DNA from: a virus
Lineage: Duplodnaviria > Heunggongvirae > Uroviricota > Caudoviricetes
Strand: one strand, 5' to 3'
Virus record (IMG/VR): IMGVR_UViG_2617270980_000004
Location: 1 to 27,269 of that record
DNA: 27,269 nt
In this document: one piece after another, positions 1-14,754 of the stretch
Layout of the letters: the number at the start of each line of letters is the position of its first letter
Numbering within the stretch: the stretch's first letter is position 1
Translations under genes and position numbers: made by a program
The notes under the pieces: generated by a model
The model's database searches: none
Told to the model about the DNA's origin: nothing
Seen by the model: the letters and a program-made list of their open reading frames with translations, nothing else

Positions 1-792
1 CAGCGACATCATCCGGATAAACGCAGTGCCCGTGCGCAGCACGACGACTGGCTGAAGAGAGAGATACAGCGCGTATACGATGAAAATCATCAGGTGTACG
101 GTGTGCGTAAAGTCTGGCGTCAGTTGTTACGGGAAGGAATCAGGGTGGCCAGATGTACAGTGGCACGTCTCATGGCGGTTATGGGACTTGCCGGTGTTCT
201 CCGGGGTAAAAAGGTCCGTACGACCATCAGCCGGAAAGCCGTTGCCGCAGGCGACCGCGTAAACCGTCAGTTCGTGGCAGAACGACCTGACCAGCTGTGG
301 GTGGCTGATTTTACTTACGTCAGCACATGGCAGGGCTTCGTCTATGTGGCGTTTATCATTGATGTGTTTGCCGGATACATCGTGGGGTGGCGGGTCTCAT
401 CGTCTATGGAAACGACATTCGTGCTGGATGCGCTGGAGCAGGCGTTGTGGGCCCGTCGTCCGTCTGGCACCATCCATCACAGCGATAAAGGCTCTCAGTA
501 TGTGTCACTGGCCTATACGGAGCGACTAAAAGAAGCCGGATTACTGGCATCAACAGGGAGTACAGGCGACTCGTATGACAACGCGATGGCTGAGAGCATC
601 AATGGTCTTTACAAAGCGGAGGTAATACACCGTAAGAGCTGGAAAAACCGTGCAGAAGTGGAACTGGCCACACTAACGTGGGTGGACTGGTATAACAATC
701 GACGATTGCTGGGAAGGCTGGGCCATACTCCTCCGGCAGAAGCAGAAAAAGCTTATTATGCTTCCATCGGAAACGATGATCTGGCAGCCTGA
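1..792 (+). CDS. IS3-family transposase OrfB (DDE integrase core), 5' partial
   Basis: Frame 1 is uninterrupted from the window start. Translation contains rve-type integrase core features (VADFTYV..., HSDKGSQY..., DNAMAESINGLYK) typical of IS3-family OrfB. Confidence 0.85.
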   Translation, partial: QRHHPDKRSARAQHDDWLKREIQRVYDENHQVYGVRKVWRQLLREGIRVARCTVARLMAVMGLAGVLRGKKVRTTISRKAVAAGDRVNRQFVAERPDQLWVADFTYVSTWQGFVYVAFIIDVFAGYIVGWRVSSSMETTFVLDALEQALWARRPSGTIHHSDKGSQYVSLAYTERLKEAGLLASTGSTGDSYDNAMAESINGLYKAEVIHRKSWKNRAEVELATLTWVDWYNNRRLLGRLGHTPPAEAEKAYYASIGNDDLAA

Positions 793-6199: not shown

Positions 6200-6352
6200 A
6201 TTAAAGAGCATTAGTTCAGATGTGAATTGACATTTTCATGGCGCAGGGTAGAGCCAGCGTGGTTGTCCGCTTTGCGTCAAAACCAGATATTACCAGATTT
6301 AGACATATATTCCCGATAGCCCTGCTCTGATGCTACACTCTGTGCTATTTTC

Positions 6353-7039
6353 ATGACCCCAATAAAAATATTTATGACTATTGCTGATTTCAAACGGCCT
6401 AAATTGGAACTCCCAAACGGGGCAAACAAACTACTACTGCACTCTTGCTGTGCTCCATGTTCCGGTGAAGTGATGGAGGCGCTTCAGGCCTCGGGAATCG
6501 ACTACACCATCTTTTTCTACAACCCGAACATTCATCCTCAGAAAGAGTATTTAATTCGTAAGGATGAAAATATTCGCTTTGCTGAACAACACGGCGTGCC
6601 GTTTATCGATGCTGATTACGACACCGACAACTGGTTTGAACGTGCCAAAGGAATGGAATGGGAGCCTGAGAGGGGGATCCGTTGTACCATGTGTTTTGAC
6701 ATGCGTTTTGAGCGGACAGCGTTGTACGCTGCTGAAAATGGTTTCAGTGTGATCAGCAGTTCACTGGGCATTTCACGCTGGAAAAATATGCAGCAGGTTA
6801 ACGAGTGTGGGCGGCGAGCTGTTGCGCATTATCCGGGTATGGTGTACTGGGATTATAACTGGCGCAAGCAGGGCGGCTCGTCCCGTATGATTGAAATCAG
6901 CAAGCGCGAAAAATTCTATCAGCAGGAATATTGTGGCTGTGTGTATTCTCTGCGCGATACCAATCTACACCGCAAATCTCAGGGACGCCCTCTTATCAAA
7001 ATTGGCCAACTCCACTACGGAAAAGAAGAGAAGGAGTGA
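6353..7039 (+). CDS. QueH-like (DUF208) Fe-S protein, epoxyqueuosine reductase family (assignment from recalled motifs)
   Basis: Conserved cysteine clusters [20 protein letters not shown] and QEYCGCVYS. No clear Shine-Dalgarno; alternative start at 6374. Extended -10-like TGcTACACT upstream. Confidence 0.55.
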
Positions 7040-7217
7040 TTTTATGGATCACCTTTCTGATTGATTTCATATTGGCGAGGTGACGTGAGTTAAGTAGAAT
7101 TGCTGCGGGTGCCTGAGGCTGTCTGCCTCAGGCATGAACACCAAAAGGCAGATAGAGAAAGCCCCAGTTAACATTACGCGTCCTGTAAGACGCTCAACAT
7201 TAATCTGAGGCATATGG

Positions 7218-8342
7218 ATGCGGATGAAAGAATTAAATAAATTCAGAGTGATAGACCTCTTTTGTGGGGCAGGTGGATTATCTTATGGTTTTCTTCATGG
7301 AGAGATGTCTGACTACTTTGAAAGTATCCTTGCTATTGATAATAATGCTGCAGCTATAAATACCTACAATGCCAATTTTGGTTTGCATGGAGTTCAGGCA
7401 AATATTGAGGAGTGGGCATCCAGCAATACTGTTCCTGAGGCTGATGTGGTCATAGGTGGCCCCCCGTGTCAGGGATTCAGTTTATTAAATAAGAATCGTT
7501 ATGGTGATCACCGAAGAGCATTGTGGGAGCCTTATATGGATGTCATTGAGCGTTCAAGGGCTTGTATGTTCGTCATGGAAAATGTCCCCGGATTGCTGAT
7601 AAGCGATGAGTTTGCGGACATTACGTTTAGAGCGAAATCCATGGGCTTTATTCTGCTTAATCCAATGGTGTTGAATACTGCTGACTATGGAGTACCTCAG
7701 ACAAGAAAACGAACGATAGCAATCGGTATCAAACGAGAACTCTTCGATGTGCATAGTATTCCGGCGTTCCCGCCAGCACCAACGCATCGTTCCCCTGATA
7801 AGGATGTCGCTTTGCCTGAATGGGTCTGTACGCGTGATGCAATTGGTGACTTACCTGCTCCTGTTGGAACTGATATTCGTAATGAACTTCCTCCGCTGAA
7901 CTTACATTTTGGGCGTAATCCCACACCTGTTTCTTTGGAGCGATATAAAGCGGTTCCACCAGGAGGTAACCGTTTCGATTTACAGAAAAAAAGACCTGAT
8001 ATAACCCCGGCGTGCTGGCTAAAAAAGAAATCTGGAGGGACCGATTTGTTTGGACGTCTGTGGTGGGACAGACCTTCAGTAACGATTCGTACTGAGTTTT
8101 TCAAACCGGAGAAAGGGCGATATTTACATCCGGAAGAGGATCGGCCAATAACTCATCGTGAGGCAGCGAGATTAATGTCTTTTCCTGATAATTTCATTTT
8201 TACCGGTTCAAAAACTGAGATTGCAAAGCAGATCGGGAATGCTGTTCCACCGCTATTTGCGGCAAAAATCGCACAATATGTGTATGGAGTTTTGCAGGGA
8301 CGGTATAAGAATAACATCAGTAAGAATAGTCAAGCAGCCTGA
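7218..8342 (+). CDS. DNA (cytosine-5)-methyltransferase
   Basis: Canonical m5C motifs: I FCGAGGLSYGF, IV GGPPCQGFS, VI ENV, VIII QTRKR, X GNAVPP. Confidence 0.9.
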   Translation: MRMKELNKFRVIDLFCGAGGLSYGFLHGEMSDYFESILAIDNNAAAINTYNANFGLHGVQANIEEWASSNTVPEADVVIGGPPCQGFSLLNKNRYGDHRRALWEPYMDVIERSRACMFVMENVPGLLISDEFADITFRAKSMGFILLNPMVLNTADYGVPQTRKRTIAIGIKRELFDVHSIPAFPPAPTHRSPDKDVALPEWVCTRDAIGDLPAPVGTDIRNELPPLNLHFGRNPTPVSLERYKAVPPGGNRFDLQKKRPDITPACWLKKKSGGTDLFGRLWWDRPSVTIRTEFFKPEKGRYLHPEEDRPITHREAARLMSFPDNFIFTGSKTEIAKQIGNAVPPLFAAKIAQYVYGVLQGRYKNNISKNSQAA

Positions 8343-8355
8343 AGGAAATCCAGAA

Positions 8356-9234
8356 ATGAATGGAGATTTGGTTGACAGCATAGTTGGTTTTGCTGAAGCC
8401 AGAAAGGAGTTTCATGCCCAATTGTTACTGAATACGCTCACAATTAATACTGCCGGAGTTGTTAGTAACGCAGATAGCAGTAACAAAAACAGTAAAGCTA
8501 TAGCAAGAGAAATTGCTCGCTTCTTGCAGGCTGAAACGATTGGTGAACGTGTTGCAGGGCAAACATCTGGTAATCAGTTTGAGAGTATCTGCGCAGAGTT
8601 TATAGAAAAAACCTTTTTTAAACTCAGCCACTTACGCCCTGGAAAATGGAATGTACATCAGGTTTCTGGTAGAAACAGATTAGAGATAGCTAAATATGAA
8701 CAATATGCCCATCTTATAGCATTGGATAGTGCTGCAAAAAGTAATCCTCAGCTAGCTGCTGCACTGGGGAGTGATTATACGATTTCACCAGATATTATTG
8801 TTGAAAGAGAACCTGAATGTGATCAAGTTATCAACAGTCCTGAATTACTGGTGGATGATTCTGTTACCCGCATGTCAGCTCTCAGGAGTTCGAATGGTGG
8901 GAAACCAATATTACACGCAAGTATTTCCTGCAAATGGACAATAAGAAGCGACCGGGCCCAGAATGCTCGTTCTGAGGCATTAAATCTTATTCGCAACCGT
9001 AAGGGAAATCTCCCTCATGTAATGGTTGTTACTGCTGAGCCTACTCCAAGTCGTCTGGCGTCTATTGCTCTTGGTACTGGTGATATAGATTGCGTGTATC
9101 ATTTTGCGCTTTATGAACTTATATCAGCAGTTGAAATACTGGGGCTCAGCGATGCAGCTGACATGCTTTCCGTGATGGTTAATGGTAAAAGATTAAAGGA
9201 TATTTCTGATCTTCCCTTGGATCTTGCAGTCTGA
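8356..9234 (+). CDS. type II restriction endonuclease, NgoMIV/Cfr10I-like (inferred from catalytic-motif spacing)
   Basis: Immediately downstream of the m5C methyltransferase; AAGGAAA Shine-Dalgarno. PD at residues 145-146, S-C-K at 191-193, E at 207; the D-to-K (47) and K-to-E (14) spacings match what I recall for NgoMIV (D140, K187, E201). Family assignment unverified. Confidence 0.55.
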   Translation: MNGDLVDSIVGFAEARKEFHAQLLLNTLTINTAGVVSNADSSNKNSKAIAREIARFLQAETIGERVAGQTSGNQFESICAEFIEKTFFKLSHLRPGKWNVHQVSGRNRLEIAKYEQYAHLIALDSAAKSNPQLAAALGSDYTISPDIIVEREPECDQVINSPELLVDDSVTRMSALRSSNGGKPILHASISCKWTIRSDRAQNARSEALNLIRNRKGNLPHVMVVTAEPTPSRLASIALGTGDIDCVYHFALYELISAVEILGLSDAADMLSVMVNGKRLKDISDLPLDLAV

Positions 9235-13609: not shown

Positions 13610-13685
13610 GGCCCTTTAGCTCAGTGGTGAGAGCGAGCGACTCATAATCGCCAGGTCGCTGGTTCAAATCCAGCAAGGGCCACCA
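13610..13685 (+). tRNA. tRNA with CAU anticodon (resembles E. coli minor Ile tRNA ileX/ileZ by recall; Met not excluded)
   Basis: Cloverleaf folds by hand: acceptor GGCCCTT/AAGGGCC, D arm GCTC...GAGC, anticodon loop CTCATAA, T arm GCTGG TTCAAAT CCAGC, 3' CCA encoded. Confidence 0.85.
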
Positions 13686-13785: not shown

Positions 13786-13862
13786 GCGTTGTTAGCTCAG
13801 CCGGACAGAGCAATTGCCTTCTAAGCAATCGGTCACTGGTTCGAATCCAGTACAGCGCGCCA
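13786..13862 (+). tRNA. tRNA-Arg (anticodon UCU)
   Basis: Cloverleaf folds by hand: acceptor GCGTTGT/ACAGCGC, anticodon stem ATTGC/GCAAT with loop CTTCTAA, T arm ACTGG TTCGAAT CCAGT, 3' CCA encoded. Confidence 0.85.
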
Positions 13863-14326: not shown

Positions 14327-14717
14327 ATACATATCTGGATTATCACCGGTTACGGTAAAAAGTGATTGCTTACTGTTTTTGTGAATGGCATTGCAGCAGC
14401 CGGATAATGTCAGTGCTGGCTGACGGTGTGCTGGTGGCGGGGGTGGTGGTTGCTGCTTTCCCGTTGCTGAAAAAGAAAACGCCAGACTGTTAGCCGGGTA
14501 TCAGTTAGCGGGAGAAATTTTTAAATACTTCACAATTCAGGCGGTTGACTGTTGTCTGGTTTGCGGGGAGTTTGTTAAAAGAAACTGGCATGGTGAATCC
14601 CCCTGTGCGGAGGGGCAATCAGCGAGTAGGTATATGGGATAATCGCGGATTCAGGTGCTGGTACTGAATTCACCGGGAGGCACCCGGCACCATGCAATGG
14701 CACATAGCGCCACTCTC

Positions 14718-14754
14718 CAGCCCCTCTCCGGAGGGGCTGTTTATATTGATTTTG
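14718..14754 (+). terminator. strong rho-independent terminator in the cargo island
   Basis: Perfect 9-bp stem CAGCCCCTC/GAGGGGCTG with TCCG loop, followed by TTTATATTGATTTT. Confidence 0.6.

Follow-up and report, generated by a model that had tools for sequence, protein, structure and literature searches.

Why should a prophage of Escherichia coli carry a gene for a tRNA-maturation enzyme whose reaction the host can already perform? The last step of queuosine (Q) synthesis reduces epoxyqueuosine (oQ) to Q at wobble position 34 of tRNA-Asp, -Asn, -His and -Tyr. As Frey et al. reportedly described in 1988, E. coli does not synthesize cobalamin de novo and accumulates oQ when cobalamin is absent. 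The Q pathway of E. coli is known in full (PMC5372724); in this species the step is normally carried out by QueG, a cobalamin/[4Fe-4S] enzyme (PMC5175355; PMC4646009). QueH is a cobamide-independent alternative to QueG (PMC6461909); the two are non-orthologous enzymes for the same step, and either completes Q synthesis (PMC5372724). The reliance of E. coli on QueG, which the initial annotation of this DNA had pointed out, is borne out by the presence of queG in all 5426 complete E. coli genomes, so that a prophage queH is always a second, non-orthologous reductase. We analysed a 27,269-nucleotide stretch of viral DNA (IMG/VR record IMGVR_UViG_2617270980_000004; hereafter, the window) that contains such a gene. 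We propose that it is probably lysogenic-conversion cargo that would give lysogens a B12-independent route from oQ to Q.

A QueH-family gene in a prophage

The plus strand of the window contains an open reading frame at 6353-7039 that encodes 228 amino acids, with the HSCCAPC, CTMC and YCGC motifs all present, exactly as the initial annotation had read it when it proposed a member of the DUF208/QueH family. In a profile search, Pfam PF02677 (QueH) matched this frame with an E-value of 1.1e-65 and 221.5 bits over profile positions 1-174 of 175, the curated cutoff of PF02677 being 23.5 bits. A sequence search of the PDB returned QueH entries of Thermotoga maritima exclusively, and the match to 7lc5 (E 8e-22) covered the whole domain. 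These matches lie far past chance and confirm that the frame is real and that its product belongs to the QueH family. Both checks that had been suggested for the family assignment, an HMM search against DUF208 and a structure prediction compared with solved QueH, gave positive results. RefSeq already labels the gene QueH, and neither the enzyme family nor its reaction is new. The product contains no Pfam domain other than PF02677 and matches no NCBIfam model. In PHROGs it is assigned to phrog_3217, which is labelled 'unknown function'. The profile of this group has 188 positions and aligns only from residue 41 of the 228-residue frame; it seems to have been built on N-terminally truncated gene calls that miss the CCAPC motif, and this omission may be a cause of the label.

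Although the frame opens at ATG 6353, the real start of queH is most likely ATG 6374, which yields a coding sequence of 221 amino acids plus stop at 6374..7039 on the plus strand. This placement follows from the choice made by PGAP, the alignment of homologues, the divergence of the seven intervening codons and the lack of conservation of ATG 6353. The E. coli B-1109 genome is 100% identical to the window over 6200-7217, and PGAP starts its 100%-identical copy of the gene (WP_000150294.1) at 6374. The methionine at 6374 is also where the alignment of chromosomal homologues begins, and an alignment of upstream regions showed that ATG 6353 is not kept in chromosomal queH copies. Furthermore, across codons 6353-6373 the window and the isolated lambda-like phage HannyBb differ at four of seven residues in a protein that is 95% identical over its entire length. 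The in-frame extension at 6353..6373 (plus strand) is thus probably 5' untranslated, non-coding sequence. The coding sequence itself is supported by the PF02677 and 7lc5 matches, by the PGAP call, and by the cysteine set, predicted fold and dN/dS ratio described below.

QueH uses iron-sulfur chemistry and does not depend on cobalamin. According to Li et al. (2021), cysteine ligands are said to be assigned to a [4Fe-4S] cluster and an adjacent metal site through the motifs CCxP[C/D], CxxC and CxC. The prophage protein retains all of the family cysteines, namely C25, C26, C29, C104, C107, C187 and C189 in the 221-residue numbering (add seven for the 228-residue scheme). We aligned the product with 85 diverse representatives (50% clusters) and the T. 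maritima sequence; each of the seven cysteines was conserved in 62-84 of the 87 aligned sequences, gaps being scored as non-conserved. The third cysteine of CCAPC occupies the alignment column of Asp13 in T. maritima QueH. We considered whether a cysteine opposite Asp13 marks a divergent active site and rejected this reading: cysteine, found in 71 of 77 representatives, is what the family normally has there, and T. maritima is the outlier. Mutants of the T. maritima enzyme altered at the aligned positions (C9S and D13N) are present in the PDB. Judged from these residues, the sequence gives no reason to doubt a working enzyme.

An AlphaFold2 model built from 27 homologues was of moderate quality (pLDDT 70, pTM 0.72), and the loop preceding the CGC motif was left unmodelled. 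In a Foldseek search of the PDB with this model, the top five matches were all T. maritima QueH (E 2e-8; TM-score 0.77 on the target), followed by PP-loop enzymes of the TtuA/LarE family. The predicted fold is that of QueH, with an adenine-nucleotide-alpha-hydrolase-like Rossmann core.

Setting, spread and origin of the queH cassette

The window represents the early-to-late region of a lambdoid prophage, and queH lies within the early region, in keeping with the original description of the gene as prophage-borne. From the left edge, an IS3-family transposase fragment (rve integrase core; 94-792, plus strand) is followed by a cI-like helix-turn-helix repressor gene on the minus strand, a YdaT-like gene, a DnaT-like O gene, P, genes for DUF1627 and DUF977 proteins, and queH. 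On the 3' side of queH are genes for a Dcm-type C5 methyltransferase (7224-8342), an NgoMIV-family endonuclease (8356-9234), a DUF968 protein, RusA, the phage Q antiterminator and an N6 methyltransferase. The right part carries two tRNA genes, a small RNA, a NanS-like esterase gene, lysis genes and terminase. The small RNA, STnc100 (RF02076), lies between the tRNAs and the esterase gene at 14559-14748 on the plus strand and scored 132 bits, compared with a gathering score of 47. No single place in any complete E. coli genome accounts for 80% or more of the window (the maximum is 77%), and the window therefore looks mosaic.

Comparison with HannyBb, in which queH is also present, delimits a cassette. 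Homology between the two phages starts near 6256 despite a different upstream gene and extends just beyond the queH stop codon, so that the upstream non-coding part of the cassette (6256..6373, plus strand) moves with the gene between prophage backbones. In HannyBb a 375-bp insert follows the stop codon, after which homology picks up again at 7045-7211. This shared segment (7045..7211, plus strand) is a hok/sok-type leader, a neighbour that lies outside queH and forms the right border of the cassette; Rfam family RF01794 matches at 7107-7287 with 61 bits. A sigma-70-like promoter can be seen 5' of this match, at 7072-7100. HannyBb continues from the leader into mokW/hokW, whereas from about 7212 onward the window has the restriction-modification pair in place of the toxin gene. 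It appears that, beneath the hok promoter and leader, one addiction-type module was swapped for another (the Dcm-type methyltransferase with the NgoMIV-family endonuclease). PADLOC matched only these two neighbours, the methyltransferase and the endonuclease, as a type II restriction-modification system, and QueH matched none of its families.

An operon or functional link between queH and the restriction-modification pair was considered and rejected. The pair adjoins queH in just 57 of 942 queH-positive genomes, HannyBb has hokW in that place, and the right breakpoint falls at about 7210 in 57 of 80 IMG/VR loci; for these reasons queH does not form an operon with the restriction-modification genes. 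The distribution is that of a moron, a gene present or absent at a module border: among complete E. coli genomes, queH occurs in 942 and the hok-leader element in 3947, and the breakpoints, as judged against HannyBb and the IMG/VR loci, lie near 6256 and near 7044/7211.

The cassette is widespread. Counted at a coverage of at least 80%, it is present in 942 of the 5426 complete E. coli genomes (about 17%), and the hosts include O157:H7, O111, O103, O2:K1:H5 and O18:H1 strains. At least 190 viral contigs in IMG/VR encode relatives; the best 80 of these copies are full-length and intact, with a protein 100% identical to that of the window, and RefSeq annotates the listed E. coli copies as intact QueH. 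Between the window and HannyBb, queH shows a dN of 0.013 and a dS of 0.30, a dN/dS ratio of 0.045. This ratio, together with the wide occurrence of intact copies, indicates that queH is under strong purifying selection and argues against a decaying passenger.

Where, then, did the gene come from? The closest relatives outside Escherichia are chromosomal copies in Scandinavium (92% amino acid identity), Kluyvera (91%) and Enterobacter (88-90%). At the DNA level, the match between these genomes and the window is confined to the gene and at most 50 nt upstream, the Scandinavium homology beginning at 6324, and the flanks are unrelated. Where flanks were scanned (Scandinavium and one Enterobacter), they encode an SDR protein, a metallo-beta-lactamase, chorismate mutase, a GGDEF protein and a pseudouridine synthase. 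E. albertii carries the prophage version of queH. The simplest history would be that a lambdoid phage captured a housekeeping queH from an Enterobacteriaceae chromosome.

The chromosomal position of queH varies among genera of the Enterobacterales. In Providencia the gene lies beside the tRNA acetyltransferase gene tmcA, a few kb from purC; in Erwinia its neighbours are a two-component sensor kinase gene and a purL-like gene (FGAR amidotransferase), one on either side; and in Photorhabdus it lies beside benE. These more distant copies, too, have housekeeping surroundings. The E. coli prophage copy also belongs to a QueH clade in which it shares 75-80% amino acid identity with proteins of Sphingomonas, Paracoccus, Neisseria, Stenotrophomonas and Pseudomonas. 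Such conservation combined with varied positions hints at either frequent horizontal movement or very strong constraint.

The region upstream of queH

In an alignment of prophage and chromosomal upstream regions, nearly all of the invariant non-coding columns fall within TGCTA-A-T at 6331-6339. On the plus strand of the window this segment reads TGcTACACT (6331..6339), a putative extended -10 element whose TACACT hexamer occupies 6334-6339 and from which transcription is predicted to start near 6346. The form TGCTACA(A/C)T recurs about 43 nt upstream of the ATG in E. albertii, Scandinavium, Kluyvera, Enterobacter and Symbiopectobacterium, and Erwinia and Pantoea have TACACT at the same place. 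The segment resembles an extended -10 promoter (TGnTAnnnT) that came along with the gene, and not a phage operator. A scan for two-hexamer consensus promoters found no sigma-70 promoter on the plus strand upstream of queH and did not pick up TGcTACACT. No Rfam family or riboswitch was found in the leader, even at E-values up to 1, and upstream of queH there is no recognisable Shine-Dalgarno sequence. After the queH stop codon we found no intrinsic terminator, just a modest hairpin lacking a U-tract (z -1.95). Given that scans revealed neither promoter, riboswitch nor terminator, promoter function is proposed on the strength of conservation; that no consensus promoter, Shine-Dalgarno sequence or terminator was found counts against autonomous expression of queH.

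The initial annotation had drawn attention to two short motifs in this region, at 6328 and 6341, and had read them as half-operators overlapping a promoter. Their positions are correct. Their interpretation as sites for the prophage repressor was rejected: the pattern TGNTGCTA occurs three times in the window compared with 2.87 expected by chance, the two motifs form no dyad, and the queH cassette accompanies differently annotated immunity regions in different prophages. The first motif is best taken as part of the gene's native promoter, and not as a phage repressor site, because it overlaps the putative -10 element conserved in non-phage, chromosomal queH copies. The second is conserved only inside the prophage lineage and can itself be read as TGcTATTTT.

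Similar repeats are found elsewhere in the window. TGATGCTA recurs at 2691, in the cI/cro-like intergenic region (2651-2757). This region contains the palindrome AATAGtgatgCTATT at 2686-2700 and two copies of a similar 8-mer, ATGCTATT, at 2693 and 2718, which are candidate operators of the prophage's own repressor. Their likeness to the motifs upstream of queH appears to be coincidental. Additionally, a tandem direct repeat, ACCAGATATT / ACCAGATTT, is located at 6282-6300, 5' of the putative queH -10 element; its first copy has diverged in HannyBb.

Possible roles of queH and its known counterparts

Our preferred reading is that queH encodes a functional QueH that would act on E. coli tRNA. 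Under this reading, queH, along with some 50-120 nt of the sequence natively upstream of it, would have passed from an Enterobacteriaceae relative's chromosome into a lambdoid phage and would have become cargo (a 'moron') between the replication module (O/P, DUF1627 and DUF977) and the hok/sok-type locus. In the lysogen, queH would probably be transcribed constitutively at a low level from its own extended -10 promoter, and upon induction it may also be read through from the early operon. The enzyme would reduce oQ to Q at position 34 without cobalamin, so that in lysogens Q synthesis would run to completion, and not stop at oQ, under B12 shortage or with an impaired QueG. The host would supply the substrate through its tgt and queA pathway. 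Conversion of oQ-tRNA to Q-tRNA by this protein has indirect support only, from its 88-92% identity to chromosomal QueH and from the lack of any other Pfam domain. Because queG is universal and its product depends on cobalamin, B12-independent completion of Q is the most economical mechanism; a B12-sparing effect is likely, since QueG needs cobalamin and E. coli makes none de novo. The gut is often B12-replete, which counts against such a benefit. The sequence comparisons establish the family, the intact cofactor ligands, the fold, the chromosomal origin, the conservation of the promoter element, the purifying selection, the prevalence and the redundancy with queG; enzymatic activity on E. coli tRNA, expression in the lysogen and the B12-sparing benefit are steps that we infer. 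In the literature we found no experiment on this protein and no paper on prophage queH in E. coli.

Alternatively, queH may serve the phage during the lytic cycle, as an early, antiterminated gene that converts host tRNA from oQ to Q and thereby aids translation of late genes in concert with the phage tRNAs. We regard this as unlikely. The gene is indeed co-oriented with the replication genes, lies between them and the Q antiterminator, and is separated from the upstream genes by no terminator. Both tRNA genes that the initial annotation had linked to queH exist, on the plus strand 3' of the Q antiterminator and the N6 DNA methylase: ARAGORN predicts a tRNA-'Met'(CAT) at 13610-13685, which is possibly an ileZ-like tRNA-Ile2 as in Stx-type phages, and a tRNA-Arg(TCT) lies at 13786-13862. 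The link fails, however, at the anticodons, as CAT and TCT are not GUN queuosine acceptors and the phage tRNAs are not substrates for Q. Nor does codon usage favour such tuning: the NAU fractions in prophage genes (Asp 0.61, Asn 0.52, His 0.61 and Tyr 0.53) are near ordinary E. coli usage and reveal no NAU bias. Retention of the native housekeeping -10 element also speaks against a purely lytic role, and where B12 is available QueG would already perform the conversion. The earlier suggestion that the phage tunes host translation is therefore tenable only in the general sense that the enzyme may act on host tRNA; phage-specific codon tuning is not supported, NAU/NAC usage being unremarkable.

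It is also conceivable that queH contributes to 7-deazaguanine modification of DNA, or to the supply of free precursors, and so to evasion of restriction. Phages are known to place 7-deazaguanines derived from this pathway in their DNA (PMC6884629), and in the window queH adjoins a restriction-modification pair. This idea, already ranked as less likely in the initial annotation, is largely refuted and scarcely probable: no DpdA/TGT, QueC/D/E or FolE was found among the 20 window ORFs scanned against Pfam, and none is annotated in HannyBb over bases 1-40,694 of 45,272. Moreover, the pair stands beside queH in no more than 57 of the 942 genomes; housekeeping QueH proteins encoded on chromosomes share 88-92% identity with the prophage protein; and QueA, QueG and QueH were all missing from the deazaguanine-modifying viruses surveyed by Hutinet et al. 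(PMC6884629). A captured gene of no use to phage or lysogen, neutral and heading for decay, might be suspected from its full redundancy with queG in every genome, from the absence of a defence-system match and from the 'unknown function' label of PHROG 3217. Such a fate seems very unlikely given the dN/dS ratio of 0.045 over a dS of 0.30 between phage-borne copies, the intact and protein-identical state of the best 80 IMG/VR copies, the intact RefSeq copies and the retention of every cofactor ligand. A moonlighting or counter-defence role, in which the wobble change alters sensitivity to anticodon nucleases that target Q-tRNAs or in which another epoxide is the substrate, strikes us as equally improbable. 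It may be entertained, as speculation only, on the ground that, in the window and its relatives, a hok/sok-type locus and a restriction-modification pair share the early-region cargo slot with queH; against it stand the lack of a PADLOC match, a sequence nearly identical to those of housekeeping enzymes, and the fact that no gene co-varies with queH as a partner would.

The reading of queH as B12-sparing lysogenic-conversion cargo extends known biology and adds no new mechanism or category, because the enzyme family and reaction are known and RefSeq already labels the gene. If queH is active in lysogens, a common prophage would chemically alter four host tRNAs and lift a vitamin B12 dependency, and editing of the tRNA epitranscriptome would join the traits of lysogenic conversion. 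We are more tentative about the broader claim that a temperate phage spreads a Q-specific tRNA-maturation enzyme as a lysogenic-conversion trait that measurably alters decoding or stress physiology under B12 limitation, to which we give somewhat less than even weight. If it is true, the strains behind about one-sixth of the complete E. coli genomes, with O157:H7, O111, O103 and extraintestinal lineages among them, would finish Q without B12; at limiting B12, wobble decoding or stress physiology would be changed, and possibly also the supply of queuine to the animal host. It would also be the first enzyme of the Q-specific tRNA pathway shown to act from a phage. The presence or absence of queH further provides a natural difference among strains for gauging the value of the oQ-to-Q step to the cell.

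Among known systems, the structurally characterized relative is QueH of T. maritima (7lc5, 7lc7 and 9deu), to which the prophage protein is similar over the full-length domain (about 30% identity; TM-score 0.77), with the same CC, CxxC and CxC ligands. The prophage enzyme differs in having cysteine (CCAPC) where T. maritima has Asp13 (CCAPD), in about 20 extra N-terminal and 25 extra C-terminal residues that are common to other proteobacterial QueH proteins, and in being carried by a phage. Chromosomal queH genes of Enterobacteriaceae are closer: they share 88-92% amino acid identity, the start codon and the -10 element about 43 nt upstream. In contrast to these copies, which have metabolic genes on their flanks where scanned (Scandinavium and one Enterobacter), the prophage gene is flanked by phage replication genes and a hok/sok-type locus and moves among lambdoid backbones.

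The host's own QueG catalyses the same reaction on the same tRNA substrates (PMC5372724) and resides in the same cells, but it is non-orthologous and differs in fold and cofactor, requiring the cobalamin (PMC5175355) that QueH does not (PMC6461909). The phage 7-deazaguanine clusters (DpdA with FolE/QueD/QueE/QueC; Hutinet et al. 2019) likewise consist of phage-borne genes of the queuosine/archaeosine pathway. However, what these clusters modify is phage DNA, and Q-specific tRNA enzymes are not among their products: in the viruses analysed, the 2019 survey of deazaguanine genes recorded no QueA, QueG or QueH homologues (PMC6884629). In the queH prophage, by contrast, the only pathway gene among the ORFs scanned is that of the Q-specific last step, with no DpdA. 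Finally, Streptococcus pyogenes and S. suis resemble queH-positive E. coli in having both QueG and QueH in one genome (PMC12632869); in E. coli the second reductase is delivered by a prophage and is found in only about 17% of complete genomes.
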